Part shown: positions 19,586 to 35,085 of the stretch, piece by piece
Layout of the letters: each line of letters begins with the position of its first letter
How positions within the stretch are numbered: the first letter of the stretch is position 1
Assembly (NCBI GenBank): GCA_001683985.1
Contig: MAEO01000044.1
Coordinates: 18,850-82,849, forward strand
DNA length: 64,000 nucleotides
Direction of reading: 5' to 3'
From: Smithella sp. M82
GTDB lineage: Bacteria; Desulfobacterota; Syntrophia; Syntrophales; Smithellaceae
Notes under the pieces: model-generated
Told to the model about the DNA's origin: nothing
The model's input: only the letters and a program-made list of their open reading frames with translations
Database searches by the model: none
Program-made: the position numbers and the translations under genes

Positions 19586-19620
19586 TATTCAAACGTAGCG
19601 TTCTCAAATATAAAATGACA

Positions 19621-19649
19621 TTGACACAAAGGTTAATATTACCTATATT
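19621..19649 (+). promoter_or_regulatory. sigma70-type promoter for the kinase gene
   Basis: TTGACA-17 nt-TATATT, about 50 nt upstream of ATG 19699. Confidence 0.55.
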
Positions 19650-19698
19650 TTTCGGCGCAACAACTTATGTATAAACCCATGTTTAAAGGCTATTAATT

Positions 19699-20616: not shown

Positions 20617-20642
20617 CAGAAAAAGAAAACCTGCAAGACAGA

Positions 20643-21227
20643 TCATCCGGAATTTTCATTTTTTATTTTCCGGTAATTGATAATATTTTTTCTATGATTA
20701 AACAAGATCAACAGGAAAGTAGCCAGCGCTCCGGATGTTGCGACAAATTGCCAGTCAAGAATTAAAGCCTGACCGCAAGCAAGCGTAAAAACCATAAAGA
20801 ACGATGCGATAAAAGTGATTCGGAAAATTCCGTAAACAATAAGCCAGACTGCTGCCGAAGCAAGAGCAGCCCATGGTGCGACAAGAAGCATAAAGCCCAA
20901 GTAATTGGCCACTCCCTTGCCGCCACGAAAACTATGAAAACAGGGAAAGCTGTTTCCTAAAACAAGAAAAAAACCAGCCCACGGCAGCAATTGTTTTTCT
21001 AAAAAATAAATTGCCACAGCCGCGACCGCTATTGCCCTGCCGATATCCAGCAGAAAAACAAATGCCGCCCAAGCAAATCCTGCCTGACGGTAAACATTTG
21101 TAGTTCCCGCATTGCCGCTGAAACTCAGGCGTGGATCCTTCCTGCCGGTCAGTTTAAAAAAAATAACAGCAAAATTTACGGAACCGGCAAGGTAAGCTGG
21201 CAGATAAATTAAAAATGTTTTACCCAT
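20643..21227 (-). CDS. plsY: Glycerol-3-phosphate acyltransferase PlsY family
   Basis: AYLAGS, DPR..SGNAGTTNVYR, FRGGKGVA and HRKNI motifs; 5 TMs. Confidence 0.85.
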   Translation of the reverse strand: MGKTFLIYLPAYLAGSVNFAVIFFKLTGRKDPRLSFSGNAGTTNVYRQAGFAWAAFVFLLDIGRAIAVAAVAIYFLEKQLLPWAGFFLVLGNSFPCFHSFRGGKGVANYLGFMLLVAPWAALASAAVWLIVYGIFRITFIASFFMVFTLACGQALILDWQFVATSGALATFLLILFNHRKNIINYRKIKNENSG

Positions 21228-21251
21228 ATCTTTTTCAGAGACCTTATAATA

Positions 21252-21412
21252 TCCTCCGCTGGCGCAAAGTCGGGCGAATATTCAGGAGGCGTAAGTCCGG
21301 CGAATGCCGGATGTCGCGTAGTGACGGAGGTGGATAAAGGATTACCTGTAACCTAAATGAAAATTACGGCTACATTAACGCTTCCACCCCCTTAATCCCC
21401 CGCCAACGGGGA
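21252..21412. repeat. Palindromic element, TGTCC(C/T)CCGCTGGCG family, copy 1
   Basis: TCCTCCGCTGGCG...GTAGTGACGGAGGTGGAT...CCACCCCCTTAATCCCCCGCCAACGGGGA; an inverted homolog of 27013..27168. Confidence 0.75.
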
Positions 21413-21432
21413 ATACGCAAAACAAATACTTT

Positions 21433-22296
21433 TTACAAATTTACCTTAATCCAATCTGGTGGATGCATCCTTCCCCTCGTCACATCCTTCATCTTAAGAC
21501 CTTTGATATATTCACACATTATATCCTCTTTATAAATCCAAGCGTCGAATATCAACATATCTCCGGTCATATTAACCGGTATAACCCGCCCCAGATATTC
21601 TTCTTTCTTTTTAGTTTTTTGATAAATTATTCTTTTTTCAAATCCTACGGGGAAAGAAACAATACCGGCAAAGCGCTGACCCCAGACACATGCCGCATGC
21701 ATTGTCGCATCCATTGGAAAAGGCGAACCGAGTAAATTTTCAGCGGCTTCATGGTCCCCGCCGGCAAGATAAGCCAACGCACCTTCAGAAGAAACCGATA
21801 GGTCACCCACAATATTCCGGTAAGCGGTCCCAAAAGGAACCAGTTCACGGTAAATAGTAGTCGAAGGTACGCTGATACATTCCCCTTTCAGTTTATCCAA
21901 CACACGAAAATGATGCGTAACAACCTCTTTCGGATTAATTGTACAGAACTCCACCCGCGCGTGTTCAACTTCGCGGCTGATGGTTCCTGTTTTTGATTTC
22001 ATGGAAGTTAAAAGTGTAGCTGCAATAATTCCACTCCCGGAATTTTCCACATCAACAATAACCGGTTGATTTTCGATATCCTGTGTGATTGTCAGAAAGC
22101 GAGAAAAGGCAGCGTTCTGCAGACAATTTATTTCTGTTCGCGGATAATTTTGTTTGACCGCCCGAGCCAGAAGAATAAGTGATTCTACTGCGGGCAGGAT
22201 CACCTTACCTTCCAGACAGTGATCCCTTAAATAGGAATGAATCTCTATTTCACAGAAATGCCTTTTCTTCTGATTTAAGCCGGAAATGATTTCCAT
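21433..22296 (-). CDS. Stand-alone polyketide-synthase-type dehydratase (double hotdog, PS-DH)
   Basis: HxxxGxxxxP motif (LRDHCLEGKVILPA), Y....FG..YR, and DxxxH (MDATMH). Likely start at ATG 22296, overlapping the thioesterase end. Confidence 0.75.
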   Translation of the reverse strand: MEIISGLNQKKRHFCEIEIHSYLRDHCLEGKVILPAVESLILLARAVKQNYPRTEINCLQNAAFSRFLTITQDIENQPVIVDVENSGSGIIAATLLTSMKSKTGTISREVEHARVEFCTINPKEVVTHHFRVLDKLKGECISVPSTTIYRELVPFGTAYRNIVGDLSVSSEGALAYLAGGDHEAAENLLGSPFPMDATMHAACVWGQRFAGIVSFPVGFEKRIIYQKTKKKEEYLGRVIPVNMTGDMLIFDAWIYKEDIMCEYIKGLKMKDVTRGRMHPPDWIKVNL

Positions 22297-22751
22297 AATT
22301 GAACCGTTTTCGGATCCACGGCCACGGGAGTGCCCGAAAGATTCAGTGCGCAATGTTTGGTAAAACCGGTACAGATTATGTGTCCTTTTTCCTGATGCGT
22401 GATCAGGTAGTCGAATTGCAGACGTACTCTTTCCAGATTGACCGGTCGCGTGTGAATATACATCAAATCATCATAATAAAGAGGCTGATAGAAACTGACA
22501 CCCAAATCAAAAATAGGATAAACATAACCGCTATTCTCGATTTCCTTGTAGGGATAAGCAAGATCGCGCATCAGCGACGTCCGGCCGAATTCAAAATAAC
22601 GCATATAATTGGAATGATACACCACTTGCGAACGATCCGTATCGATATACAAAACCCTGTACACCGAGCGATGCCAGACCAGACCGCTGGTGAGATCGCG
22701 CACATAACGTTCATCATTGTATATTTCAGGTTTAAAAGGTTTGGGCCTCAT
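22275..22751 (-). CDS. Acyl-CoA/acyl-ACP thioesterase, YbgC/4HBT family
   Basis: RVLYIDTDRSQVVYHSNYMRYFEFGR signature. Confidence 0.88.
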   Translation of the reverse strand: MRPKPFKPEIYNDERYVRDLTSGLVWHRSVYRVLYIDTDRSQVVYHSNYMRYFEFGRTSLMRDLAYPYKEIENSGYVYPIFDLGVSFYQPLYYDDLMYIHTRPVNLERVRLQFDYLITHQEKGHIICTGFTKHCALNLSGTPVAVDPKTVQLWKSFPA

Positions 22752-22754
22752 TTT

Positions 22755-24020
22755 CTATACTCCTCTGAAAATTACGCAGCAATTTGTTCCGCCAAATCCA
22801 AAAGCATTGGAAAGAGCAACCTCATATTTATGTTTGCGGGCTTCATTAGGAACGACGTCAATATCCGAAAACTCAGGATCAGGAATATGATTAATCGTCG
22901 GCAGGATGATGCCTTTTTTCATTCCTTCAATAGTCAGAGCCGCTTCGATAGCCGCCGTCGCTCCCAGAGTATGCCCGAGCTGAGACTTGTTTGATGAAAC
23001 GGGAATTTTTTCTATTTTTTTACCGAACACTTCCCTCAGACATTTTACTTCCGTGCTGTCGCCTTTAGGTGTGGAAGTGCCATGAGCATTTATATACTCG
23101 ATATTTTCCGGTTTCAATCCGGCATCATCGATAGTTTCGCGAATAGCCCTGATGATGGTCGGCATATTGGGGCTGGTATAATGATGAGCATCTGATGTCC
23201 ATCCGACACCTAGAATTTCGGCTTTTGGTTTAAGACCGTACATTTTCATAACTTCCTCAGCCGCCAGAACAACAACACCCGCGCCTTCCGAAAGAACAAA
23301 GCCCCTGCGGTCAACACTGAAAGGACGCGATGCCAGCGCCGGGTTATCATAAGCGCGATCTTTGGAATTAACTTTAATAGTGGCGTTCATATTGGCAAAA
23401 CCGTGAATCAGCTCCGGTAAAATGGGAGTATCGGCGCCTCCGGCCAGAACGAAATCGCAATCACCGTCTCTGATCATTCTTGCCCCTATGCCCATAGCGT
23501 GATTACCCGAAGCGCACGCGCCCTGCGGCGAAAAAATAGGCCCGGTAAACTTCAACAGCATTCCCGCCTTGCCGGACGGAAGGTTTGCGCACAAATTAGG
23601 CAACAGATACGGACTTACCCGGAGCGGGCCGCGATGTTCCAAATCGTGAACCGCGACTCGAAAAGCGTCAGAACCGTTAAGCGCTGAACCGATTAGGCAG
23701 GCCATTCGGGGCCCAATTTCGGCATTAATTTCAATTCCGGCATTCTGCAAAGCTTCCTTGCAGACCGCCATAGTCAAAATAACAAAAGCCGCGTTCCAAT
23801 TATACACTTCTTTTGCGTCGGTGAAATCAAGCTCCAGCGGATACCAGTTCGGTATTTCTCCGACGACATCGCAGGCAGATTCGACTTTACAGCGGGTTAC
23901 TTTGCGGAAACCAGCTTCTCCTTTAACCGCCCTTCTCCATGTCTTTTCAAAAGTACTGCCCAGCGGAGTGGCCGCACCGTAACCGACAACAAAGACTTTT
24001 CTGTTCTTGGGAGCTCTCAT
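22755..24020 (-). CDS. Beta-ketoacyl-ACP synthase (FabF-like) KAS-1
   Basis: Cys-His-His triad: GACASG, NAHGTST, GHTLGA; ends NAFGFGGTN. Confidence 0.92.
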   Translation of the reverse strand: MRAPKNRKVFVVGYGAATPLGSTFEKTWRRAVKGEAGFRKVTRCKVESACDVVGEIPNWYPLELDFTDAKEVYNWNAAFVILTMAVCKEALQNAGIEINAEIGPRMACLIGSALNGSDAFRVAVHDLEHRGPLRVSPYLLPNLCANLPSGKAGMLLKFTGPIFSPQGACASGNHAMGIGARMIRDGDCDFVLAGGADTPILPELIHGFANMNATIKVNSKDRAYDNPALASRPFSVDRRGFVLSEGAGVVVLAAEEVMKMYGLKPKAEILGVGWTSDAHHYTSPNMPTIIRAIRETIDDAGLKPENIEYINAHGTSTPKGDSTEVKCLREVFGKKIEKIPVSSNKSQLGHTLGATAAIEAALTIEGMKKGIILPTINHIPDPEFSDIDVVPNEARKHKYEVALSNAFGFGGTNCCVIFRGV

Positions 24021-24034
24021 AATTTACCTTTTTA

Positions 24035-24176
24035 TGTCACTTCAAATCCCGATTTATCGGGGTGGGAAATCTTATTTTCAATTCACAAATTTTAAGAAGA
24101 CAATGTAGTCCGAACCTTTAGGTTCGACTATTTAACTACACTTTCCTCACCCGCTTATAGCGGATTCGGAATGACA
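24035..24176. repeat. TGTCA...GGAATGACA palindromic element with a nested GTAG-REP hairpin
   Basis: Ends TGTCACTTC / CGGAATGACA. Internal hairpins CCCGATTTATCGGG, GTAGTCCGAACCTTTAGGTTCG and CCGCTTATAGCGG. Confidence 0.7.
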
Positions 24177-24187
24177 TTTTTTACAAA

Positions 24188-25441
24188 CTAACCATTCCTG
24201 CGCAAAACCAGGCAGGAGTTGCATCCGCCAAATCCAAAAGCGTTTTTCAGAACAAACTCCTGTTTTAATTTTCTTGCGCCCTCGGCAACACAGTCAATTT
24301 CAATTTCTTTATCCGGAATATAATTAATAGTGGGTAACAATGTGTCTCTTATCATGCCTTCCATAGCAAATATCGCCTCTATCGCACTGGATGCGCCCAT
24401 CGCATGGCCTAGCTGCGATTTATTCGCCGATACCGGTGGCACTTTATTACCGAAAATATTACGCAGCGCATCGGCCTCTACCTTATCTCCTATTTTTGTT
24501 GAAGTCGCGTGCGCGTTGACCGCGTCAATGTCTTGCGGCCGCAAGCCGGCATTGGCAATCGCCTCTTCCATACATCTTTGCACCGTTGTCAAATTCGGTG
24601 AAACAAAATGACCGGCATCCGATGTCATTGACCATCCGGCCATTTCAATATTTGATTTAAGCCCGTGAGCTTTGACGAATTCATCCGTTGCTAAAATAAT
24701 GCAACCCGCGCCTTCAGAAACCACAAACCCACGGCGGTTAACGGAAAACGGCCGGCTGGTTTTCTTCGGTAACTCTTCCGGCTGACCTTCTTTCGGACGA
24801 TATGCGCCGTTCATCGTGGCAAATCCCGCAACGATTGGCTCTACCAGAGGAAAATCCACCGCCCCGCCGATAACCACATCCGCCATGTTTCTTTGCAACA
24901 ACATCTCGCCCATGATGAGCGAAGTAATTCCCGTGGCACAAGCCGTTATCGTCGAACAAATCGGCCCTGTCGCTCCCGTAAGAATGGAAACCTTTCCGCC
25001 CACCATGTTAATACAGGAATTGGGATTGGTAAAAGGATGAGGCATTTTCCCTTCTTTAACCATCAAACGATCAGCCTGTAAAACAGCATCCACTCCTCCG
25101 ACCGCCGTACTGAAAGTAATTGCCACGCGCGGCGCTATTTCCGGAGTTATCTCAATTCCGCTTTTTTTAAGCGCCCGATGCACAACCAACAATGCATATT
25201 TGAAAATAGGTGATGTCCAGTGCGCCAAATCCCGCGGCTGCAAGAAAGGATATGAGCGGGTATCAATTTCTGCAACTTCACCGGCAACACGCACCGGAAA
25301 ACCGGGACTGAGCGGAAACCTAGTCAATTCCCCTATGCCGCAACCTCCGGTAACGGCCCTTTGCCATTGAGCCTCCAAATCCGTACCCAAAGAAGACACC
25401 GTGTCATAACCTAATATTAAAGTTTTCTTTGAACCCACCAC
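24188..25441 (-). CDS. Beta-ketoacyl-ACP synthase (FabF-like) KAS-2
   Basis: TACATG, NAHATST, GHAMGA, NAFGFGG. GTG start overlaps the GIY-YIG gene end. Confidence 0.92.
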   Translation of the reverse strand: MVGSKKTLILGYDTVSSLGTDLEAQWQRAVTGGCGIGELTRFPLSPGFPVRVAGEVAEIDTRSYPFLQPRDLAHWTSPIFKYALLVVHRALKKSGIEITPEIAPRVAITFSTAVGGVDAVLQADRLMVKEGKMPHPFTNPNSCINMVGGKVSILTGATGPICSTITACATGITSLIMGEMLLQRNMADVVIGGAVDFPLVEPIVAGFATMNGAYRPKEGQPEELPKKTSRPFSVNRRGFVVSEGAGCIILATDEFVKAHGLKSNIEMAGWSMTSDAGHFVSPNLTTVQRCMEEAIANAGLRPQDIDAVNAHATSTKIGDKVEADALRNIFGNKVPPVSANKSQLGHAMGASSAIEAIFAMEGMIRDTLLPTINYIPDKEIEIDCVAEGARKLKQEFVLKNAFGFGGCNSCLVLRRNG

Positions 25442-25721
25442 TTAAATCCCGCCAGCTTGGATTTTCTTGATTAACAAGTTTGTCCTTTTTTTCTCTACGC
25501 CAATTTTTAATTTCTTTTTCTCTTATTATTGCAACATTAATATCCCTTGTTTCTTCAAAGTAAACTAACTTACTCAAATTATACTTTTCAGAAAAGCCTG
25601 GAATCAATTTATTCTTGTGTTCATAAATTCTACGACTCAAATCATTAGTAACACCGACATAGATTACTTTATTATTCCAATTGGTCAACAAATAGACATA
25701 ATACTTCTTTGTGAAGACCAT
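25404..25721 (-). CDS. Small GIY-YIG nuclease family protein
   Basis: YYVYLL...IYVGVTNDLSRRIYEHK...F..KY...LVYFE...AI.REK.IK.WRREKK..L....NP.W.DL. Confidence 0.9.
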   Translation of the reverse strand: MVFTKKYYVYLLTNWNNKVIYVGVTNDLSRRIYEHKNKLIPGFSEKYNLSKLVYFEETRDINVAIIREKEIKNWRREKKDKLVNQENPSWRDLSGGFKENFNIRL

Positions 25722-25771
25722 TTGTTATTTCTTTCTAAGCAGAAGAATTAACGACCAAAGCTAATATCGTT

Positions 25772-25892
25772 TGTCATTTCGACCCGGCAAATGCCGGGGA
25801 GAAATCCATGTCCCGAGTGTAACGAGGGGTCTTCTAAGATTCCTCACCCGATAAATCGGGATTTACCCTTAAGGGCACTTCGCGGAATGACA
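25772..25892. repeat. TGTCATTTCGAC...CGGAATGACA palindromic element upstream of the GIY-YIG gene
   Basis: Terminal inverted repeats plus the internal core GGAGAAATC...GATTCCTC and hairpins CCCGGCAAATGCCGGG and CCCGATAAATCGGG. Confidence 0.8.
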
Positions 25893-25975
25893 TTGCTTAT
25901 AATATTCTCCGGAACAGTCCGGAAATGTTTGGAATCTGCCAATAAAGATGGGTTTATATCAGAATTCTAAAAGGA

Positions 25976-26974
25976 TTACCAAGAAATAAAGTGATACAGT
26001 TTGGCAAACATTTCATACACTTCGATCCAGTTTTGCAAATCTTTGGTCGACTTCAAATGTTCGCGTTTATTGACCATTACCCAGCTCATGTGCGCCGCAC
26101 CGTCTTTACATGTGGAGCAATCGCGCGTCGCCGACGTACAGCAGCGATGAACTGTTTTTAAATCGGATGCCCAGCGGACAAAGTGAATCAGGCGGCGGGG
26201 ACGATTTTCTCTATTGTCCAAGGATTCCGTAACGGAGGGACACTCACTCCAGCCGAAGCTGCGTCCCATCATTTTTCCGGTGGTAATGACTTCGTGATAA
26301 TATTTGCAGGAAATTACAGTTTGCGGATAATGGTCGAGCATTTCGTCCATTTCAAAACGCAGATCTTTCAGCTCGCCCTCTTGCCAGGAAAATCCGTCCA
26401 CACCCTCATCGTTCGATAAAAGCTGCAGATGAACTTTTAAACCGACGTCGGCGATTCTTTTGATTACCGGTTCAATTTTCCCCACCTGACGCGGTGTAAT
26501 CGTATAGAGATAATAAGTGTATTTGTCTCCTTCATAATTTTTACTGGAAACGGCAAAGGTATCGCGTCCCCGAAGAACCTTTTCATCTTCACTGTCGCCC
26601 CACAACGAAATTCCCACTATCATATCGGGAAATTTATCGCGGGGAACCTTAATCAGGCCGTTGGTGGCACAATACGTAGGCAGGCGTTTGTAGAAAGCCT
26701 CGACGCGCTCCATACACAAAGTCGGCTCGCCGCCGATGAGAATTGCCAGATTAACTCCCCGCTCTTTTTCACGATCAATGAATTCTTCCCACTTTTTGAT
26801 ATCCATTTCTTCCACTGCCGCCTGATGTTCTCCCGAAGAAAAGAAAAAACATCCCTTGCAGCGCAAATTGCAGCGGTTGGTTACATCATATATGGAACTG
26901 CGGATATTCAAGTTGGAAATCCGTCTGTATCTTTCATACCAATCTTTATCCAGTAATGAACTGACTGTTTTCAT
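25976..26974 (-). CDS. Radical SAM protein B (lipid cluster)
   Basis: CNLRCKGC, GGEP and a C-terminal Cys cluster C...CC-x6-C-x2-C. Confidence 0.9.
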   Translation of the reverse strand: MKTVSSLLDKDWYERYRRISNLNIRSSIYDVTNRCNLRCKGCFFFSSGEHQAAVEEMDIKKWEEFIDREKERGVNLAILIGGEPTLCMERVEAFYKRLPTYCATNGLIKVPRDKFPDMIVGISLWGDSEDEKVLRGRDTFAVSSKNYEGDKYTYYLYTITPRQVGKIEPVIKRIADVGLKVHLQLLSNDEGVDGFSWQEGELKDLRFEMDEMLDHYPQTVISCKYYHEVITTGKMMGRSFGWSECPSVTESLDNRENRPRRLIHFVRWASDLKTVHRCCTSATRDCSTCKDGAAHMSWVMVNKREHLKSTKDLQNWIEVYEMFAKLYHFISW

Positions 26975-27012
26975 CAGAACTTCCTAATTTATACTCGCAA
27001 TGACATTATGCG

Positions 27013-27168
27013 TGTCCCCCGCTGGCGGGGGATTAAGGGGATGGATAGTTTTATAGCTTTTGATTGCAGGGCATACTTTCCAAATGTACTGCAATTGGGA
27101 CTGCTCTTGTAACAGTCTTTACAACATCCACCTCCGTCACTACCTGACACCTCCGCCAGCGGAGGACA
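27013..27168. repeat. Palindromic element, TGTCCCCCGCTGGCG family, copy 2
   Basis: TGTCCCCCGCTGGCGGGGGATTAAGGGG...CACCTCCGTCACTAC..CCTCCGCCAGCGGAGGACA with terminal IRs. Confidence 0.8.
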
Positions 27169-27183
27169 AGTAATGACAAATTT

Positions 27184-28284
27184 TCATGTTGCTGCCGCAT
27201 GCGGCGGCTCTATAATATCATTACAAAGATTTTTGCCTTTTTCGTAACCCATTACCCAAACCGCCAGATAAGTATCCACATAATCCAGCCACGATTTAAA
27301 CGTATCCATACTATCTACATGCCTGTAAAGACGCGCCGTAACAACCGCAGAACCCGCGGCGTAATGACGGCAATCTACACAATCCGTATCCGGCACGCAA
27401 CAGGCAACAGACCTGTCCCAGTTCAAATCTGTCCGGTACTGCCTGAAAGACCTTCCCAGTCCGATATCCTGCGAAGGATTCTGACGGGGATACGAGCAGC
27501 CGTATAAATCGTGCAAACCTTTTTTATGAGTGTGCGCCACGGCATTATAAACTGAAAAAAGAACATTTTGCGGATATTTACCCAAAAGATCTATCATTGT
27601 CAATTGCATCCGTTTAAGAGAGTCATCATCATGCCGCAGATTTCCCGTATAACCGACCGGTGAGGAAAAAACATTAAAGGTCAATTTACAATTGTGGGCG
27701 ACAAGCTCTTCGGTGACTTCTTTTACTTCATCAATATTATTCCGCGTAAAGGTATAAACAAAAACTGCGCGCGGATCATTTTCGTAATTCTCGATCTGCT
27801 TCTTTAAAAGGTTTTTAGCCTTTCTAATTCTCAGGCTGGTTTCATCATTTCCCCAAACGGAAATATGCAGCTTATAGCCGACCGAGTCCGGTATTTTTTT
27901 AAAGCCGTTGGTGGCGATGCTACCCAGCGGCATTTCCTGATAACAAACATCGAGCAATTCCGGAACCAGAGAAGGTTCTGCTCCCGCCAGAACAACATAG
28001 GTAATGCCGCGCGCCTTCTCCGCCCGCATCAGTTCGCGCCATGCCTCAACATCGCCAATTTCTTTGGCAAATTGTTTTGTCCCTTCATAATAATAACACC
28101 CGTCGCAACGGATATTACAGCGGTTGGTCATATCGTAGGTCGATTCCCGAAGAAAAAAATATTTCCTCACTTTTTCCCAGCGCTCTTTAACTTCCGTCTG
28201 GGCTAAAAGCTCGGAAAATTTCGGTTTGTTTGATTCCGGATTTAATTTACGATTAACCTGCATAAATTTGACAGAACCCATCAA
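27184..28284 (-). CDS. Radical SAM protein A (lipid cluster), paralog of 25976..26974
   Basis: CNIRCDGC, AGAEP and a C-terminal CC-x5-C-x2-C. Shares the S.YD.TNRCN.RC, TNG..K.P and ISxWG motifs with B. Confidence 0.9.
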   Translation of the reverse strand: MMGSVKFMQVNRKLNPESNKPKFSELLAQTEVKERWEKVRKYFFLRESTYDMTNRCNIRCDGCYYYEGTKQFAKEIGDVEAWRELMRAEKARGITYVVLAGAEPSLVPELLDVCYQEMPLGSIATNGFKKIPDSVGYKLHISVWGNDETSLRIRKAKNLLKKQIENYENDPRAVFVYTFTRNNIDEVKEVTEELVAHNCKLTFNVFSSPVGYTGNLRHDDDSLKRMQLTMIDLLGKYPQNVLFSVYNAVAHTHKKGLHDLYGCSYPRQNPSQDIGLGRSFRQYRTDLNWDRSVACCVPDTDCVDCRHYAAGSAVVTARLYRHVDSMDTFKSWLDYVDTYLAVWVMGYEKGKNLCNDIIEPPHAAAT

Positions 28285-28560
28285 CTAATTTTTTGTGGCA
28301 AGTTTTTCTTCAATATATTCGGAAATAAGGCGTATGGTTTTTAATTTGGGATAATCATCTTCGTCTATTGTAATATCGTATTCATCCTGTAAGATCAATG
28401 CGACAGTCGCCAGATCCATACTGTCAATGCCCAGTTCATCCACCAGATCCATATCCGAATTAAAAGTATCTGCGGTAACGTCTTCCAATTTCAACTCATC
28501 AATAATAATTTCGGCCACGTGCCGTATAATGCCTTTGATATCTTGATTTACAGGCATCAC
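28285..28560 (-). CDS. Acyl carrier protein
   Basis: Acidic 91 aa with LGIDSMD. GGAGGA RBS. Abuts radical SAM A. Confidence 0.9.
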   Translation of the reverse strand: MMPVNQDIKGIIRHVAEIIIDELKLEDVTADTFNSDMDLVDELGIDSMDLATVALILQDEYDITIDEDDYPKLKTIRLISEYIEEKLATKN

Positions 28561-28593
28561 TATCCTCCTTAGAATAATTATTTATATTTACTT

Positions 28594-28989
28594 TTATCCA
28601 TTTATTTTTTTAGCAGTCATATGTCCGCTACTTACAATATTTTCTTTCTTCATTATTTTGAAAGAAAATGAAACATCATCACCCGCATCTTCAGAATTTA
28701 TACTTATTGACAATTTATCCCCCGGCCTTACCGGTTGCATAAATCTGACTCTTCTTAGCGAATGTAACTGAAGCTGCATTCCTTTTTTAAGCGCTTCCTC
28801 TAAAATAGCCTGTTTAACTGCGGCAACCAAGGCTACTCCGGGAAGAATCGGTTCTCCCGGAAAGTGACCGGAAAACCAGGGAGAATCAGCCGGCACATCC
28901 CCTAATGCCTCAATATGATTACCATTAGTTGCCTTTATTTCTTTTAATAAACTCCACTGATTGCCCAATAAATATACCTCATTGGCCAA
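28594..28989 (-). CDS. Single-hotdog dehydratase (FabZ/ApeI-like)
   Basis: SPWFSGHFPGEPILPGVAL and VRFMQPVRPGD. Confidence 0.8.
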   Translation of the reverse strand: MANEVYLLGNQWSLLKEIKATNGNHIEALGDVPADSPWFSGHFPGEPILPGVALVAAVKQAILEEALKKGMQLQLHSLRRVRFMQPVRPGDKLSISINSEDAGDDVSFSFKIMKKENIVSSGHMTAKKING

Positions 28990-29103
28990 TTTTTAATCAA
29001 ATGAATGCCAAAAGAACATAAATTCATATCATTGATTTTTTTTCAACTAAAAAATTAATGAGTCCCAAGTTTCAGAAGTGAAGCACGCTAAAACTTGCTG
29101 GAC

Positions 29104-29220
29104 GAATTATCCGGCGTATGCCGGATAATAAATCAACACCTACAGGGACGGACTCAGGCATGCGAACTATCCCAGGCGCTTAGCGCCGTGGTAAAACAAG
29201 CTGAGCGAAGCGAAGGGGGA
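29104..29220. repeat. Cluster of short REP-like hairpins
   Basis: ATTATCCGGCGTATGCCGGATAAT; CCCAGGCGCTTAGCGCCGTGG; CTGAGCGAAGCGAAGG. Confidence 0.5.
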
Positions 29221-29246
29221 TTTGTACCTTAGAAATATTTTTTGAA

Positions 29247-29275
29247 TTGACATTCAAAATCTATGTGCTTATAAA
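29247..29275 (+). promoter_or_regulatory. sigma70-type promoter
   Basis: TTGACA-17 nt-TATAAA upstream of the plus-strand membrane gene. Confidence 0.5.
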
Positions 29276-29465
29276 TACACATCTTAAAGAATTAAAAAAT
29301 CGTTTCATATATTTTTTACAAAGACAGTTTTCAAGTTTAAATATCTGAATTTTTTAAAAATGCATTTCAGGTCAATAAAAAAAGATATGAAAACTGCTAA
29401 CGAAACAGGATATTTGCCCCCCCTGAAAATTGATATTGCGCTTTCATTTAGGAGTAAGTCCAAAC

Positions 29466-30123
29466 ATGAAAAAACCTTCTCTGATAAACGTTACTGCAAT
29501 CATTATGATTGGTATTTATATTTATAGTATTATCAGCCAATTGTCATATTTGGCAGAGCATTATGATTCTGTCATGGTGGCTCTCACATCTGATTTTCGC
29601 ACCAATTACAACATAATGATAATTATTTTTCTGTATGCGGTGTTATTGCCGGAACTGGTTTATATTTCCATAAGAATTGGTCTCAATTCTTAGCTATCCT
29701 TATTGCTACATTGTTTGTCTTACAGTCCTTCCAGGGCCTTCTGGTAATTGCTTTTACGAACGAAAACGGCGATAAGATTAAGATTGCGACGGAACTTATC
29801 ATTTATTTATTATTCGCAGCCTGGTGCTTGTATTACCTAAATCTAACTGAAGTTGATGAAAAGTTAAAAAAAGCTTTTCCTTCTTTATATTGCCTCTGTC
29901 AGGTTTTGTATCCGGCATCAGCCTTTTGGGTAAAAAGAACTGGGCTCGTAAAATTGCGGTTATATTTTCAATGGTAGCAATCGCCTTCTATGTACAAAGT
30001 TTCTTTATTTATAATGATAGAATTATAAGAGTTGGAATTGCTTTATTGTTGCCTCTGCCTGTATGGTCTTTATATTATTTTACTCAACCGCATATAAAAG
30101 TGTTATTTGCACAAAAATTATAA
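29466..30123 (+). pseudogene. Frameshifted membrane protein (three consecutive hydrophobic ORFs)
   Basis: GGAG + ATG 29466. The off-frame GTGLYFHKNWSQFLAIL runs into ORF 29711, and the third ORF repeats the motif (GISLLGKKNWARKIAV; WCLYYL / WSLYYF). Confidence 0.55.
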
Positions 30124-30179
30124 CGTAAGAATAACAGAAGCCTCTTTTTGTCTCATTCTTAGCCGACAGTTAATCCGTT

Positions 30180-30983
30180 TTACCGTTTAATCGTCATTAC
30201 ATCTCTGCCAATCAAATCGGTAATCGGCACAACTCTCAAACATTTATCCACAAGTCCCTTCAGTATCTTTTCAATTTCCGTCAGTAAAGCAGCACTGTTT
30301 TTTTCACGGTGCGGATTAACATCGTGCAGCAAAATGATATCGTCCGCTTTTACTTTTTTAAGAATTCTCGAACTGAGATTCTTAATGTTACGGTTACCGG
30401 CATCACCGGCACGGCAACTGAATGTTACGCAAAACAATCCAAGTTTATTCAGCACCTGCGGCAGCTTGGGGCTGATTATGCCTACCGGCGGGCGGAAAGC
30501 CAGAACGTTTACGCCCATTTTTTTGAGAACTTCCTGCGCCCGTAACACTTCCTGATAGAGATAATTATAGCTTCCCAGCATCAAGAAAGGATTATGGTGA
30601 AAAGAATGATTGCCGATAGTGTGACCGCGGTTGATTATTTCTTTGATTATTTCAGGATATTTTAAAGCATTGACACCGGAGACAAAGAAAGTTGCTTTCA
30701 CGGCATACTTATCCAGCAACGCAAGTATTTGTCTTGTCGTCGGTTCATCGGGGCCGTCATCGAAAGTCAGGGCAACCATATTTTTACCGGTATTACCGCG
30801 GCTGATTACAGGCAGGTAAAAACTACTCCGATAACAAAATGACGCGACGACACAAAGTAAAATATAAAAAAGCGCGATTACTATGGCAAGCCATGAATTG
30901 ATAAAGAAAGCAGCCGCGGCGACAGACAAGAAAACTATTCCTGTGATTTGGGCCGGACTTAAGGATGAAGATTTGTTTTTCAT
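30180..30983 (-). CDS. Polysaccharide deacetylase (CE4/NodB) with N-terminal TM helices
   Basis: ALTFDDGP, ATFF, GHTIGNHSFHH, FRPPVG and ILLHD. Start at ATG 30983; the longer ORF start runs through a repeat. Confidence 0.88.
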   Translation of the reverse strand: MKNKSSSLSPAQITGIVFLSVAAAAFFINSWLAIVIALFYILLCVVASFCYRSSFYLPVISRGNTGKNMVALTFDDGPDEPTTRQILALLDKYAVKATFFVSGVNALKYPEIIKEIINRGHTIGNHSFHHNPFLMLGSYNYLYQEVLRAQEVLKKMGVNVLAFRPPVGIISPKLPQVLNKLGLFCVTFSCRAGDAGNRNIKNLSSRILKKVKADDIILLHDVNPHREKNSAALLTEIEKILKGLVDKCLRVVPITDLIGRDVMTIKR

Positions 30984-31003
30984 TGATACATCCTTTACCC
31001 ATT

Positions 31004-31179
31004 TGTCATGTCGAACCAAGAAAGACATCTTAAAGATGTTAAAAAAGATTTCTCGTCTCTTCGTTCCTCGAAATGACAAATAAAGCTAATGGATTCCGGC
31101 TGTTTACTCCGGAAGGGAACCCCGGCGCATGCCGGGCATGCTGGGTATGCCTGGGTATGTCGGATGCGCCGGAATGACG
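31004..31179. repeat. Two adjacent TGTCAT...AATGAC-family elements
   Basis: 31004-31078 TGTCATGTCGAAC...GATTTCTCG...CCTCGAAATGACA; 31091-31179 GGATTCCGGC...GCCGGAATGACG containing the GGGAACCCCGGC..GCCTGGGTATG module. Confidence 0.75.
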
Positions 31180-31208
31180 CCTCTTTGAAATTCACGCGAC
31201 TACGCGAG

Positions 31209-31353
31209 GAGCTGTTCAAAAGCTTGTCCCGTACTTGATACGGGATGCTCAGAGGCAAGGCGCGCAAAAATTGAACCGCGAGGCTTATATAGACATACGT
31301 CGAGCGGTGCGGTTTGCAGCGCAACACAGCATATGAGCGTTTTTCAACAGCCC
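31209..31353. mobile_element. MITE-like element with G(A/G)GCTGTT(C/G)AAAA terminal inverted repeats
   Basis: Left GAGCTGTTCAAAA, right TTTTCAACAGCCC; about 145 bp with no credible gene; nested hairpin TCCCGTACTTGATACGGGA. Confidence 0.65.
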
Positions 31354-31361
31354 CACTGTCT

Positions 31362-32711
31362 TTACTGGATTAGGTATTCCCACAGAGGCCCCGTAAATCC
31401 GCGCCTATACAATTTCGGCAAAATGCGCGTTGCCTTGGCTTCGCCGGCGCCGATAAGCCAGTTCACGCGACCGTTAGCCTTATTTTCCACCATCTTCATT
31501 ATCTCTTCAACCGATATTCCCGGCGAGCGGTAAAATACAGGCGGCAGGATATTTTCATCCGCCGTAATCTGCCCTTCTCGCAAAGCAATCTCATACAAGG
31601 CTGTGTGCGGATAGATGCGGACACCGCAAAAGAAGAAGAAAACCGCTTTTCCCAGAGAGTCTATTCCAGCCAAGGTATTTTGCAGAGTTTGTTTGTTTTC
31701 GCCAGGTCCGCCCAGCAAAAAATAATGGGCAACGTGCAACCCGGCATCAAGAGCATTTTTATGAGCTATAAAAACATTTTCCGACTTAAAAGGTTTGTGC
31801 AAGTTGGTCAGCACCGTATCCGATAAAGATTCCGTCCCGAATTCCACATGGGTCAATCCGGCTTCGGCCAACCGCTTAAAATAATCAGCCGGTGGAACTG
31901 TCGGAACAAAAAAACATCCCCAGGGAATGGAAACTTTTGCTTTAACAAAAGCCTCCGCGACCTCTCTACTGTGATCGTAACTGGCATTAAAGGCGGAATC
32001 GATGATGAAGATATATTTGGCGCCGGCATCCTGCAATTCGCGGGCGTTCTTAGCTATTTCCTGCGGAGGGTAAAACCGCATCCGACTGCCTTCAATGTGA
32101 GGATAAGTACAGTAACTGCACTGAAACGGACAACCTCTTTTTGTCTGCAGGTTAAGCATGCCGCCGTAAGAAAGATAAAAATTTGTATGTCGACCGGCCG
32201 GATCAAAATGCCTGTTGATCGCGCCGCTATACGGCTCGTAAACAATATTTGTCTTTTCCTTTGTCACAACACCGAGGATTTTTTTAATATCCGTTTTTTT
32301 CTCCAGAGCATCCAGAAGCTGCGCGAGCCTTTCACCTTCGCCGACAATTCCGTAATCGGCATCAAGCGCCTGCATGAACTCAACCGGAAAAATTGTAAAA
32401 CCGCTCCCGCCCAGAATTATTTTCGCCTGGGAATTTGTTTTTACCTGACGAATCAAATTCTGATATTCCGGCAAGAAGCTCCGGCAGTTGAGTACATCGG
32501 TATTGTCAATGTTTCTGATTGATATGCCGGCAAAATCAGGAGAAAATTCTTTGATCATCGCTTCCAGAGTTTCCGGATGGGAGAAATCGTTTAAATCAAC
32601 AATTTTTACCTGGTAACGGGAATCCAGAGAACCGGCTACATAATCCAGTCCCAGCGGATATACGGGGTAAGGAATTCTAAGAGTATTTGCTGAAATTAGC
32701 AGTATTTTCAT
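31362..32711 (-). CDS. Cobalamin-binding radical SAM protein, lipid-biosynthesis type (TIGR04072-like)
   Basis: N-terminal B12 domain (PYPVYPLGLDYV, GISIRNIDN, LGGSGF, GEGE), QTKRGCPFQCSYCTYPHIEG, and EFGTES; lies next to an ACP gene. Confidence 0.85.
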   Translation of the reverse strand: MKILLISANTLRIPYPVYPLGLDYVAGSLDSRYQVKIVDLNDFSHPETLEAMIKEFSPDFAGISIRNIDNTDVLNCRSFLPEYQNLIRQVKTNSQAKIILGGSGFTIFPVEFMQALDADYGIVGEGERLAQLLDALEKKTDIKKILGVVTKEKTNIVYEPYSGAINRHFDPAGRHTNFYLSYGGMLNLQTKRGCPFQCSYCTYPHIEGSRMRFYPPQEIAKNARELQDAGAKYIFIIDSAFNASYDHSREVAEAFVKAKVSIPWGCFFVPTVPPADYFKRLAEAGLTHVEFGTESLSDTVLTNLHKPFKSENVFIAHKNALDAGLHVAHYFLLGGPGENKQTLQNTLAGIDSLGKAVFFFFCGVRIYPHTALYEIALREGQITADENILPPVFYRSPGISVEEIMKMVENKANGRVNWLIGAGEAKATRILPKLYRRGFTGPLWEYLIQ

Positions 32712-32799
32712 AATCGGATAAAAGAACTTTAAACGCTGATGTTATATTAGTAAAAAGTTGTCATATCGACCAGCGGGGCTTTGTCGCAATTACTTTTCA

Positions 32800-32880
32800 T
32801 GTCATTTCGACCGCAGGGAGAAATCTTTCTGCATAATAATATCAAAGTTTTAAGATTCCTCGCATACGCTCGGAATGACA
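32800..32880. repeat. TGTCATTTCGAC...CGGAATGACA element (minimal form)
   Basis: TGTCATTTCGACCGCAGGGAGAAATCT...AGATTCCTCGCATACGCTCGGAATGACA. A partial copy, TGTCATATCGACC, is at about 32759. Confidence 0.8.
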
Positions 32881-32946
32881 TCTACTTTAAATGACATGTT
32901 TGAGGAGCTCCAGGCTAACATGTCATGACCAAATCAGAAATAAAAA

Positions 32947-33216
32947 TCAGCCTTTTTTACGGTTATTAGAAATATATGTAGCCAGAGCGCGCACTGATGC
33001 AAAAACCTTAACGCCCAGTTGTTTGTTATCTATTTTAACGCCGTAGTCTTTTTCAATCATCATCACCAGTTCCAGAATATCAATGGAATCAATTCCCAGA
33101 TCGCCCCCCACAAGACGTTCATCGTCTTTGATGTCTTCGGGGCCTACGTCAATCAAACCCAGTGTATCAATAATTTTAACTTTAAGTTCACTTATCATTT
33201 TCTCAATCTGACTCAT
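32947..33216 (-). CDS. Acyl carrier protein
   Basis: LGIDSIDILEL; AGGAG RBS. Confidence 0.9.
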   Translation of the reverse strand: MSQIEKMISELKVKIIDTLGLIDVGPEDIKDDERLVGGDLGIDSIDILELVMMIEKDYGVKIDNKQLGVKVFASVRALATYISNNRKKG

Positions 33217-33245
33217 TTGATACTCCTACTGTTTTATCAAGATTT

Positions 33246-33368
33246 ATGTCAAGTCGCATTCTTCAGCTAACTTTGTTGTCTGCGTTGTCGACTTCCTCAA
33301 CGTATTTAATATACGTCTGCGGAGCATCCTCCTTGCCGCTTCGTTATCTTTTGAATGTAACTCGACAT
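33246..33368. mobile_element. MITE-like element (CAAGTCGCATTC...GAATGT(A/G)ACT family), copy 1
   Basis: Terminal IR ATGTCAAGTCGCATTC / GAATGTAACTCGACAT; homologous in inverted orientation to 63509..63630. Confidence 0.65.
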
Positions 33369-33383
33369 TGCAAATTCGCTTTA

Positions 33384-33794
33384 TTATCCTGTTGCATTGT
33401 TTCTCTGGTTTTCCAGCGGATTTGATCTTATTGCATTAATCTCATCACCCAGAACTTTTTCCAGCACAATTCTGACAACCCAACGTCCCAGCGCCTTGCT
33501 GTATTTGGGACCGGCAAGATAAATTCCCAACATCAAAAGCAGCCACGAGACACCGTAAATCAGCGGAATTCCCACGACTCCAAACATTGGCGATTTCAGC
33601 CAGGCGGCAATTCCACCTACTATGAATACTGCCGGTATGCCAAGAAAATAACCGCAAAAAATCAAAACAAGACCAACAATCACGGTGGCCGTAAGTTTTT
33701 CCCTGAAAATACTTAAGTCAGCGTGTTCACATATTGCGTTTCGGCAAAATTCCTTCCGGGCAAAATAAAGCGCCGCCTTTTTTATTATGCTCAA
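33384..33794 (-). CDS. Hypothetical membrane protein (2-3 TMs)
   Basis: 136-aa ORF co-oriented between fabA and the ACP gene; hydrophobic, with ADLSIFR and GIYLAG. Confidence 0.7.
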   Translation of the reverse strand: MSIIKKAALYFARKEFCRNAICEHADLSIFREKLTATVIVGLVLIFCGYFLGIPAVFIVGGIAAWLKSPMFGVVGIPLIYGVSWLLLMLGIYLAGPKYSKALGRWVVRIVLEKVLGDEINAIRSNPLENQRNNATG

Positions 33795-33876
33795 AATATT
33801 TCCTGTAAAACAATATATGTCAATATTTTAAAATGATATTTCCGGCAGTGTCAGGTAAACAGCTCTTATAAGCTGA

Positions 33877-34467
33877 TTACTTTTCCATGATACCGCCTAT
33901 AGAATATTTTGAACGAAGCGGATAATCTTTGTAGGCGATATCCTTAAAAACTCCCGTCCGCGCCTGTCCTACAGTGGCAATCAATTCATTATCTATGTAA
34001 ATGCGGCCGTCACCAATTACTATACTCGCGCCCGATTCCTTCAAAAGAGAATAACGCCGCACATCAACTTCAAAACGAACACATTTGTTAAACGGACGAA
34101 TCTGACCGTTAAAAGCTACTTCTCCGCAACCCAATGCCCTGCCCGTACCCAGCGAACCTTTCCAAACGCAGAAAAAACCAAGTAATTGCCAGATAGCGTC
34201 TACTCCCAGGCATCCGGGCTGTACCGGATCACCCGAAAAATGGCATTGAAAATACCATGCATCCAGACGAATGTCCTGTTCAGCTATTATCTTTCCCTGC
34301 TTTCCGTCACTTTCTATCAACAGTATACGATCAACCATAAGAAAGGGAGGCGCAGGAAGTTTCGCGTCAAAATGTTCCGGAGGATCGGTTATCAGCCGGC
34401 CATAAGAAAAAGCAAGAAGCTCTTCAAAGTTGAAATGATCGCGCTTTAAAAATTCCTGATATTTCAT
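33877..34467 (-). CDS. fabA: 3-hydroxydecanoyl-ACP dehydratase/isomerase
   Basis: LPAPPFLMVDRI, WYFQCHFSGDPVQPGCLGVDAIWQLLGFF (His/Asp dyad of FabA) and GRALG.G.V.F.GQ. Confidence 0.9.
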   Translation of the reverse strand: MKYQEFLKRDHFNFEELLAFSYGRLITDPPEHFDAKLPAPPFLMVDRILLIESDGKQGKIIAEQDIRLDAWYFQCHFSGDPVQPGCLGVDAIWQLLGFFCVWKGSLGTGRALGCGEVAFNGQIRPFNKCVRFEVDVRRYSLLKESGASIVIGDGRIYIDNELIATVGQARTGVFKDIAYKDYPLRSKYSIGGIMEK

Positions 34468-34915
34468 AAGTATTCTGCTCTTTCCGCATACTAAAAGTGC
34501 GATAATGCAATGATTTCCAATAATTTAAGACAAATATAAGAAATGAACTCTTTTGTCAAAAGAAAAATGCCCAAATTAATATTTGAATCATCATGATTCT
34601 AATTAATCCATTAGTCCCACTCCGCTTCGCTACGGGGATAATTCCCAATCCCGACAAATTAGAATTGGATAGTTCGACCAACGCTTTAATGAGCCTTTAT
34701 TTTCCGAAACGTAGTGATCGGAAAATATTAGAGCGAATTATCCCGCCACTTCCAAGTGGCAGGGTCAAACTTCATCCCGATTCGTCGGGATTCGTTTTCA
34801 GAGAGACTCACTATATTTTTAATGGCTTTGAAAATGAATTTGCGTTATAAGGTTGCGCAATATAATAATACGGGGCTACGCAATAGAAGAAGATGAACCC
34901 TTCTGAAATTGTTTT

Positions 34916-35085
34916 TGTCATTTCGACCAAAGGCGAAAGCCCGGCAGGGAACCCCGGCAGATCCCCGGCGTATGCCTGGGTATGCTCGGGGAGAAATCTT
35001 TAGTAAACGAAAATGATAAAGATTTCTCGTCGTCTCGATACCTTACATTTGCCGGGCAAGAGTATCGGGACTCCTCGAAATGACA
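34916..35085. repeat. TGTCATTTCGAC...CGAAATGACA element with nested insertions
   Basis: Same termini and GGAGAAATCT/AGATTTCTC core as 32800. Contains the GGGAACCCCGGC...GCCTGGGTATG module also seen at about 31115. Confidence 0.8.

Follow-up and report, generated by a model that had tools for sequence, protein, structure and literature searches.

The window analysed here is a stretch of 64,000 nucleotides from Smithella sp. M82 (contig MAEO01000044.1), which contains on its minus strand, at 20.62-33.38 kb, an accessory island of about 12.8 kb running from the acyl carrier protein (ACP) gene ACP1 through the acyltransferase gene plsY and including genes for three radical S-adenosylmethionine (rSAM) enzymes. 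The island belongs to a larger lipid system that is aryl-polyene-like ('ladderane-type'), and we put at roughly 0.55 the probability that this system makes an aryl-polyene-like glycerolipid via a thioesterase-fatty acid kinase (Fak)-PlsY route, with contigs C129 and C5 of the same genome holding the remaining genes. The genome (2.75 Mb in 236 contigs, completeness rated 100%) is designated G000 and the window's own contig C206; compared genomes and loci bear G and L numbers, respectively. What lipid clusters with a TIGR04072-type B12-binding rSAM enzyme (B12-rSAM) do chemically has been a question since 2009, also for the putative ladderane cluster of the anammox bacteria. The locus described here is a small module with three rSAM enzymes, clearly delimited and shared horizontally, and the likely point at which the chain enters glycerolipids is indicated by the co-occurrence of a thioesterase, a fused kinase and a PlsX-independent PlsY.

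All fourteen co-oriented genes named by an earlier sequence-only reading of this DNA, as well as a GIY-YIG nuclease gene, were located on the minus strand at 20643-34467 in the open reading frame (ORF) listing and in the Pfam and NCBIfam scans (Table 1), and its description of an offshoot of fatty acid or polyketide synthesis with its own ACPs, three rSAM enzymes and a B12-rSAM of the TIGR04072 type was borne out. The borders of the island are given by G185, a cluster-less genome of the same genus (98% complete), in which the amidohydrolase and PfkB genes are followed after about 850 bp by the genes for a small membrane protein and FabA, and window 20618-33428 (PlsY to ACP1, 12.8 kb) has no counterpart. 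The small membrane protein beside FabA is retained in G185 with 76% identity, and FabA is found in all eight cluster-less genomes of the order examined and in two of five cluster-bearing relatives. Since both genes are present at the cluster-less G185 site and lie outside the indel, they represent a conserved flank, so that fabA has to be withdrawn from the cluster to which it had been assigned, and the three dehydratase types proposed earlier are reduced to the two within the island, one FabZ/ApeI-like and one of the polyketide synthase (PKS) type. Homologues of the membrane protein (30-42% identity) nevertheless adjoin the cluster in L084, L087, L089, L093, L094, G204, G241 and G021. The genes further out are unrelated to the island and include a convergent PfkB kinase and the amidohydrolase on one side and a flavin reductase-rubredoxin, an OmpA protein and the dcw cell-division cluster on the other.

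Both borders are bridged by contigs from metagenome runs (four DNA runs), record 1 of X1, which may be the source sample, covering 18500-31126 and record 6 covering 31302-34930. The FabA-membrane protein-ACP1 junction is the same in many Smithella metagenome-assembled genomes (MAGs), including the 2.78-Mb contig L022, which makes a mis-assembly unlikely. No tRNA gene was found at the island borders and no Rfam family matched in the window. The numbers of promoter-like (43 against 32.6±5.3 in shuffles) and terminator-like sites (17 against 16.2±3.9 in shuffles) say nothing on operons. The metagenomes containing the stretch are labelled as wastewater, sludge or oil-facility samples.

Inside the island, a 1.2-kb spacer at 28990-30179 separates the gene set into two blocks. 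Only its first 140 nt are conserved, and these in L019 alone; a 60-nt repeat within it is found again on contigs C8, C147 and C60, and in relatives the spacer ranges from 0 to 3.5 kb. As the spacer is variable and some loci carry the B12-rSAM block without the block of the other two rSAM genes (rSAM_A and rSAM_B) nearby, the island is considered to consist of two separable blocks.

The link to a larger system comes from three genomes outside the family, G204, G241 and G021 (a single contig), in which the island homologues and a second set of genes form one continuous stretch. This second set includes an aromatic ammonia-lyase, a second 4HBT thioesterase, a FakA-FakB fusion (FakAB), a family 2 glycosyltransferase (GT2), an MMPL::methyltransferase protein, an LpxL-like acyltransferase, further B12-binding rSAMs, a ketoreductase (KR), an ApeP-like dehydratase and LolA, and in L094 the genes for the ApeP-like dehydratase, KR and LolA lie immediately upstream of ACP1. 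In G000 the corresponding genes were located apart from the C206 island, on C129 and C5, which may be neighbours in the real chromosome. The claim of a self-contained cluster thus gives way to that of an aryl-polyene-like supercluster split here over C206, C129 and C5.

Contig C129 (L099, L100; 23.6 kb) is aryl-polyene-like in content and carries genes for the ammonia-lyase, a 4HBT thioesterase, a 568-residue FakA(N,M)-DegV fusion, an FkbM methyltransferase, GT2, a 1021-residue MMPL::methyltransferase, an LpxL-like acyltransferase, a BtrH_N/DUF4872 protein, an ABC-2 transporter, an ACP, a ketosynthase (KS) with a 338-residue partner, two B12-binding rSAMs, a ferredoxin-nitroreductase fusion and an alpha/beta hydrolase. 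On C5, the region at about 1.6-7.9 kb codes for a PF01553 acyltransferase, a beta-ketoacyl-ACP synthase (KAS), a phytoene-desaturase-like protein, LolA, a KR and an ApeP-like dehydratase, the phytoene-desaturase-like protein being 42% identical to its Spirochaetota counterpart. A fusion of a ferredoxin (2x4Fe-4S) with a nitroreductase was seen near the cluster twice (L075:4310-5197 and C129:1247-2098) and could be a pathway reductase or electron donor.

The second line of evidence concerns the acyltransferase at the end of the island. PlsY is the sole PF02660 gene of G000; it matches Aquifex PlsY (5xj5) with 74 bits over the full length (residues 1-183), retains the SGNxGxTN and GGKGVA motifs and belongs to a cluster-type group whose members share at least 46% identity with each other and 26-37% with canonical copies. 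In the window's order, represented by G000, G087, G245, G273, G301, G351, G185, G049, G121, G154, G215, G327, G375 and G399, PlsY is present in all six cluster-bearing genomes (G000 plus five others from its family), and neither protein nor family search found it in the eight cluster-less ones (97-100% complete, including G185). PlsY is therefore dedicated to the cluster, as had been proposed, and the whole order appears to be without the PlsX/PlsY system unless the cluster is present. The idea of a housekeeping PlsY, which its single copy might suggest, was dropped given the eight cluster-less genomes of the order without any PlsY. No PlsX turned up in any of the nine members of the order in which it was sought, G000 included, although phylum-wide it is present in 113 of 151 sampled genomes. 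The suggestion that the cluster replaces PlsX was also rejected, as PlsX is lacking in the order either way and is encoded in 19 of 28 cluster carriers across the phylum, which makes the absence a lineage trait.

Among 28 further cluster-bearing genomes, 17 harbor a cluster-type PlsY (at least 46% identity to that of the window), which in 11 of them lies no more than 14 kb from rSAM_B. The nine PlsX-less cluster-bearing genomes have the cluster-type PlsY only, and the 16 with a canonical PlsY all have PlsX.

The distribution of the fused kinase is similar. The protein on C129 (568 residues) consists of FakA N-terminal and middle parts joined to a full DegV/FakB domain and is present in 6/6 cluster-bearing and 0/8 cluster-less genomes of the order. 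FakAB was further detected in 23 of 23 additional cluster-bearing genomes, at 25 kb or less from rSAM_B in 16 of them, and in the 151-genome sample of the phylum the fusion is found in 9/9 cluster-bearing genomes and 1/142 others. DegV matches in long frames were obtained in all 28 other cluster-bearing genomes (566-723 residues where complete; split or ended by a contig edge in three). In Firmicutes, the acyl-phosphate used by PlsY is supplied by the fatty acid kinase FakA/FakB, and PlsX can be bypassed when a thioesterase releases a free fatty acid that the kinase converts into acyl-phosphate for PlsY. The gene content suggests the same course here, from acyl-ACP through the thioesterase to the free acid and then through FakAB and acyl-phosphate to PlsY and 1-acyl-glycerol-3-phosphate. 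Of the earlier proposal that PlsY loads the chain, the acceptor glycerol-phosphate can be kept, but transfer straight from ACP is argued against by the thioesterase and the strictly co-occurring FakAB, through which the chain would probably pass. The G000 genome also has eight PF01553 acyltransferases, including frames of 875, 758 and 647 residues.

The gene arrangement was compared by TBLASTN of the window proteins on the best 80 of at least 597 stretches obtained in an alignment-based scan for relatives of the B12 enzyme (one genome per species). The conserved order is ACP1, B12-rSAM, (deacetylase), FabZ-like dehydratase, ACP2, rSAM_A, rSAM_B, KAS2, KAS1, thioesterase, PKS-type dehydratase, (PlsY); since it recurs in Smithellaceae, Desulfobacterales and Spirochaetota loci and across three phyla, it is not due to chance. 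ACP1 is upstream of B12-rSAM in 53/54 Smithellaceae-type and 18/19 Desulfobacterales-type loci. In loci with enough flank, rSAM_A is present in 44/46 Smithellaceae-type, 3/3 Spirochaetota and 13/15 Desulfobacterales-type cases, whereas the deacetylase follows B12-rSAM in 52/53, 3/3 and 0/19 loci and PlsY ends the cluster in 26/34, 2/2 and 2/10 loci of the three types, respectively. There are differences in content too. The Desulfobacterales loci carry a 718-residue fusion resembling KS and a chain-length factor (CLF) between ACP1 and B12-rSAM, the Spirochaetota loci have a phytoene-desaturase-like amine oxidase in front of B12-rSAM, and in both lineages the dehydratase is fused to a 4'-phosphopantetheinyl transferase (L081 and L075; ACPS 41.9 and 50.5 bits). 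The closest loci among named genomes of the 80 belong to Smithella and Smithellaceae MAGs. The nearest B12-rSAM homologues (up to 92% identity) bear source names such as Smithella sp. and Syntrophaceae, and an Atlas search returned the own family, mostly from Thermodesulfobacteriota.

The most conserved gene of the cluster is rSAM_B (70-96% identity across phyla). It is present in 29 of 401 genomes of the phylum, with all matches at least 70% identical, in five of six genomes of the window's own family and in none of seven from the order's other families. TIGR04072 itself is more widespread, exceeding the cut-off in 78 of the 401 genomes, so the form bearing rSAM_A/B is regarded as a subtype. 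In a quick rSAM_B tree, drawn with the rSAM_A paralogues as root and with SH-aLRT support only, three Spirochaetota copies nest within the Desulfobacterales clade (SH-aLRT 99/100), a pattern that fits horizontal transfer under strong purifying selection. Locus L080, labelled as a Gammaproteobacteria MAG, has a Desulfobacterales-type cluster and an rSAM_B that groups with L089 and L095 (SH-aLRT 99), which points to a mistake in binning or labelling or else to a recent transfer.

The chain-building enzymes of the island resemble those of type II fatty acid synthesis (FASII). KAS1 and KAS2 are nearer to each other than to the canonical FabF encoded elsewhere, on contig C8 (191 bits), and both align end to end with FabF, the best solved match of KAS1 being FabF 2gqd (283 bits). 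The KAS1 orthologues retain ACASG, HGTST and KSxxGH in 46/46 sequences and the KAS2 orthologues the active-site Cys in 54/54 and HATST or HGTST in 48/54; with its Cys-His-His triad intact, KAS2 is not a CLF. The PKS-type dehydratase possesses the motifs HxxxGxxxxP (present in 36/39 orthologues) and DAxxH, both of which most orthologues retain, its longer relatives pass the PS-DH model (39.1 bits), and its true start is probably an internal ATG near 22296. The FabZ-like protein resembles generic FabZ and 3esi among solved structures, and for this protein, the ACPs and the KAS copies the best or equal structural matches are generic FASII proteins. They are no closer to 7qv0, 8ayb and 9s5h, which we take to be anammox proteins. 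As there is no enoyl reductase (ER) in the island, an unsaturated or conjugated chain is expected.

The B12-rSAM is surrounded by genes for ACP, KAS and dehydratases and thus found in a neighbourhood resembling fatty acid synthase (FAS) genes; of the 26 B12-rSAM-like matches in the genome, no other passes the TIGR04072 cut-off. The next-best curated families are BzaD (156 bits), the TsrM type (tryptophan 2-C-methyltransferase, 114 bits) and PhpK (106 bits), and since all of them are methyltransferases, methylation is the most economical guess for its reaction. Longer forms with N-terminal extensions of about 270-360 residues are represented by P0132 (807 aa), P0134 (754 aa) and L081:1022-3232 (736 aa), and on C8 five B12-rSAM-like genes (28.6, 35.9, 37.5, 43.4 and 46.8 kb) lie near the canonical FabF in a region of about 23-48 kb.

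The other two rSAM proteins are paralogues with 28% identity to each other, unique in the genome, and the rSAM_A gene follows ACP2 with zero gap. They share an N-terminal CX3CX2C motif and a C-terminal CC...C..C motif, and C35, C39, C42, C278, C279, C286 and C289 are invariant in 36 sequences. No SPASM match was found for either with Pfam, and the NCBIfam matches, with Tes (32.9 bits) and PapB (32.5 bits) as the best for rSAM_A and ScmE also among the weak best ones of the pair, do not exceed 33 bits against cut-offs of 180-855. An AF2 model of rSAM_B (pLDDT 74.3, pTM 0.79) was loosely assigned by Foldseek to SPASM/twitch proteins, with anSME 4k38 on top (E 4.5e-6, TM 0.44), followed by CteB, PqqE and AbmM.

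Table 1 Features of the island and its flank in the window (order of window coordinates).
Feature	Position	Strand	Matches and remarks
PlsY, cluster-type	20643-21227	-	PF02660 130.1 bits; TIGR00023 105.6 (cut-off 137.2); last island gene
PKS-type double-hotdog dehydratase	21433-22353	-	PKS_DH_N 25.3 bits, slightly below 27-bit cut-off
YbgC/FadM-type 4HBT thioesterase	22275-22751	-	TIGR00051 79.8 bits (cut-off 68.7); 4HBT_2 48.2; conserved position
KAS1, FabF-like	22755-24020	-	TIGR03150 381 bits (cut-off 493.75, not reached)
KAS2, FabF-like	24188-25441	-	40.6% identity to KAS1
GIY-YIG nuclease, 105 residues	25404-25721	-	PF01541 55.1 bits; overlaps KAS2 start
rSAM_B	25976-26974	-	Radical_SAM 31.6 bits (cut-off 29.5)
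rSAM_A	27184-28284	-	Radical_SAM 31.4 bits (cut-off 29.5); rSAM_B paralogue
ACP2, of rSAM_A/B block	28285-28560	-	PP-binding 37.3 bits; conserved position
FabZ/ApeI-like single hotdog	28594-28989	-	FabA-like 47.6 bits; ApeI-like 32.2 (cut-off 28.5); first gene of second block
Low-GC spacer with dispersed short repeats	28990-30179	.	GC 0.369; ORFs match no family; insertion hot spot
NodB-type polysaccharide deacetylase, membrane-anchored	30180-31079	-	Polysacc_deac_1 108.3 bits
B12-rSAM	31362-32711	-	TIGR04072 402.7 bits (cut-off 360), model positions 1-443
ACP1, paired with B12-rSAM	32947-33216	-	PP-binding 39.7 bits; NF006617 68 (cut-off 70); first island gene
REP-like dispersed repeat, right island border	33266-33348	.	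About 8 partial genome copies; related copy in G185 empty site
Small three-helix membrane protein (flank)	33384-33794	-	No Pfam/NCBIfam match
FabA dehydratase/isomerase (housekeeping flank)	33877-34467	-	PRK05174 199.2 bits (cut-off 124)

The pathway that we favour is built on gene identities, island borders, synteny and co-occurrence, and every chemical step in it is predicted. The two dedicated ACPs would be loaded, the two intact FabF-like ketosynthases would lengthen the chain, and a KR encoded elsewhere together with the two island dehydratases would process it. The TIGR04072 B12-rSAM would then act on the chain, most likely by C-methylation, and the SPASM/twitch-type pair rSAM_A/rSAM_B would modify it without oxygen. 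Release of the acid by the 4HBT thioesterase, its conversion to acyl-phosphate by the fused FakA-FakB kinase and acylation of glycerol-3-phosphate by the cluster-type PlsY may follow. The last steps, completion and export of a specialised glycerophospholipid presumably akin to aryl-polyene lipids, would fall to the LpxL-like acyltransferase, GT2, the deacetylase and the MMPL and LolA-like proteins.

Several observations weigh against this pathway. Pfam and NCBIfam scans of the island found no KR, ER, phosphopantetheinyl transferase (PPTase), malonyl-loading acyltransferase, CLF or transporter, and both KAS proteins have an intact catalytic triad, in which they differ from the KS/CLF pairs of aryl-polyene and anammox clusters. 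FakAB adjoins the C129-type thioesterase and not that of the island; 10 of the 28 further cluster-bearing genomes have a canonical PlsY only and one has none, and the co-occurrence at the order level amounts to about one gain and one loss, the related genomes not being independent. The fold match of rSAM_B is weak and points to no reaction. Among loci with 1.8 kb or more of downstream flank, 3/50 of the Smithellaceae type and 4/19 of the Desulfobacterales type have no FabZ-like gene downstream of B12-rSAM, and the flanks of L030, L046, L082 and L092 show no gene of the downstream block.

If the fourteen genes were a self-contained type II FAS offshoot, as originally supposed, the rSAM-modified chain would go directly to bulk phospholipid via PlsY. 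The position of PlsY at the 3' end of the island, its co-occurrence with the cluster, the fact that it was the sole PlsY-family gene in five of the six cluster genomes first examined and the lack of export genes within the Smithella island all agree with that. We find it rather unlikely, however, as fabA and the membrane protein gene belong to the flank, KR, ER and PPTase are missing from the island, elsewhere the same genes are surrounded by the LolA, MMPL, GT2 and ammonia-lyase genes that characterise aryl-polyene lipids destined for export, and the thioesterase and FakAB speak against a direct ACP-to-PlsY transfer. At the other extreme, the genes could be ordinary fatty acid and phospholipid housekeeping genes that are neighbours by chance, which the single-copy FabA and PlsY of G000 and the FabF-like nature of both KAS proteins might suggest. 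This is scarcely credible, being contradicted by the indel and the phyletic pattern, that is, by the empty site in the 98%-complete genome of the same genus (G185), the patchy spread (29/401 genomes), and the rest of the order without PlsY; there is also the separate canonical FabF on C8.

The product might otherwise be a ladderane or another cyclobutane or carbocyclic fatty acid, in which case the three rSAM enzymes would cyclise a polyene-ACP in a non-anammox bacterium. TIGR04072 membership, the presence of two dehydratases and no enoyl reductase, and the phytoene-desaturase-like gene that stands beside B12-rSAM in Spirochaetota and occurs on C5, in line with the content of anammox Cluster I as given in the available text of 10.64898/2026.05.19.726425, are consistent with this. 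It is nonetheless improbable. The hydrazine synthase alpha domain PF18582 has no match in G000, so the host is not an anammox bacterium; according to the accessible part of PMC2649909, Desulfotalea psychrophila has a syntenic cluster and no ladderanes were found in it; KAS2 is not a mutated CLF-like partner; the FabZ-like protein, ACPs and KAS copies show no preference for the presumed anammox structures over generic FASII proteins; and the nearest characterised relatives of B12-rSAM are methyltransferases. A non-lipid secondary metabolite, for instance a free polyene pigment, or peptide maturation of the SPASM kind, with an incidental link to PlsY, is very improbable in our view. The nearest folds of rSAM_B are indeed those of the peptide-modifying SPASM enzymes anSME, CteB and PqqE, and the thioesterase could free an acid, but rSAM_A directly follows ACP2, no conserved precursor-like ORF is present (the ORFs that match no family are confined to the non-conserved spacer), and PlsY and FakAB accompany the cluster in lineages independent of each other. 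A bolder variant of the preferred glycerolipid route is unlikely. In it, rSAM_A/B and the TIGR04072 enzyme would act on a conjugated polyene bound to ACP and give a chain with carbocycles or cross-links, before activation by FakAB and PlsX-independent esterification by PlsY. Were it true, whether the ring is ladderane-like or new, Smithellaceae, Desulfobacterales and Spirochaetota would make undescribed glycerolipids cyclised independently of oxygen, and tractable carriers would open up the long-sought ladderane-type radical chemistry.

Clusters of this kind have been described before. In 2009, according to the accessible part of PMC2649909, extra FabF, ACP, rSAM, deacetylase-domain and phytoene-desaturase-like genes were reported to be clustered in K. 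stuttgartiensis, Desulfotalea psychrophila, Geobacter and Pelobacter. The available text of PMC9902471 reports 'ladderane' biosynthetic gene cluster calls, with function unknown, in Desulfobacterota and other non-anammox phyla, and that of a 2026 review (PMC13459092) states that ladderane biosynthesis is unresolved. As far as these sources go, the present system has in common with the clusters of Rattray et al. 2009 and the antiSMASH 'ladderane' clusters the extra FabF paralogues, the ACPs, an rSAM pair, the B12-rSAM, a deacetylase-domain protein, a phytoene-desaturase-like gene, a small membrane protein and anaerobic hosts. Kuste3343/3342 (DP1855/1853) are candidate counterparts of rSAM_A/B. 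The FakAB fusion, the cluster-type PlsY and the island borders are not mentioned in the available parts of PMC2649909 and PMC9902471.

Anammox Cluster I, which in the accessible portion of 10.64898/2026.05.19.726425 corresponds to KustE3603-3608 and comprises amxACP, amxFabZ, PDH, amxFabF2/amxFabFmut and B12-rSAM, likewise combines its TIGR04072-type B12-rSAM with neighbouring genes for an ACP, for a FabZ-like dehydratase and for a pair of FabF homologues that lie side by side. Judged by that portion, it differs in that its PDH gene has counterparts in relatives and on C5 and none in the window, in that the island KAS pair keeps the Cys-His-His triad and amxFabFmut does not, and in the two SPASM-like rSAMs, thioesterase, PKS-type dehydratase and PlsY that are additional in the island.

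The aryl polyene (APE) products of Xenorhabdus are glycerol-phosphate-GalNAc lipids with a conjugated C26:5 acyl chain and an aryl polyene, for which two ACPs and a dedicated acyltransferase are used; the APE core genes code for KS, ACP, CLF, dehydratase (ApeI/P), KR and the transporter ApeM (10.1101/2020.12.19.423268). Compared with that account, the likeness of the whole system extends to two ACPs, several KS, ApeI- and ApeP-like dehydratases, KR, a 4HBT thioesterase, glycerol-phosphate acyltransferases, a glycosyltransferase, MMPL/RND and LolA-like export and an ammonia-lyase starter enzyme, whereas no rSAM, PlsY or Fak is listed among the ape genes (10.1101/2020.12.19.423268). The window alone contains KS, two ACPs and an ApeI-like dehydratase of the core list and falls short of it for want of CLF, KR and transporter, while the whole system contains the full list, with CLF, KR and RND/MMPL on C129 and C5 and contiguous with island homologues in G204, G241 and G021. 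The match to aryl-polyene clusters, which the sequence-only reading held would count against a novel lipid pathway, is consequently present at the level of the system and not gene for gene.

Relative to FakA/FakB of Firmicutes, the kinase parts are here fused in one 568-residue protein and tied to a biosynthetic cluster instead of the uptake of external fatty acids. A resemblance to the Tes/Mss lipid synthases, which carry out radical chemistry on lipid chains in anaerobes, is indicated by the best, weak NCBIfam match of rSAM_A, although it lies far below the 450-bit cut-off, the architecture is different and rSAM_A/B adjoin an ACP. In the literature consulted, no product is named for non-anammox clusters of this kind and nothing connects ladderanes with Smithella. 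The locus is a further case of a known, widespread and uncharacterised cluster family. To our knowledge, what is added here is the precise position of the island borders, the division into two blocks, the connection with aryl-polyene-type genes on other contigs and the co-occurrence of FakAB and PlsY; the finding is real and non-trivial, and it is less novel and less self-contained than was held earlier.

The GIY-YIG gene is probably a small mobile nuclease gene and a passenger outside the pathway. It has three copies in the genome, the other two being on C149 (51% identity) and C10 (43%), and among the 80 loci it is found in the closest relative, L019, only, where its position is a different one, after KAS2. 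GC-rich palindromic REP-like elements, belonging to inverted or direct repeat families, are located at 21383-21422, 24044-24068, 25840-25864, 27006-27045, 31109-31137 and 34941-34980; they occupy several unusually long intergenic spacers of the island, and in the metagenome contigs breaks and three- to four-fold peaks in depth fall at these elements. Beyond the island, the dcw cluster ends with a gene at 37335-39023 on the minus strand, next downstream of ftsZ, that codes for a 562-residue rSAM protein with a Radical_SAM_N2 domain.

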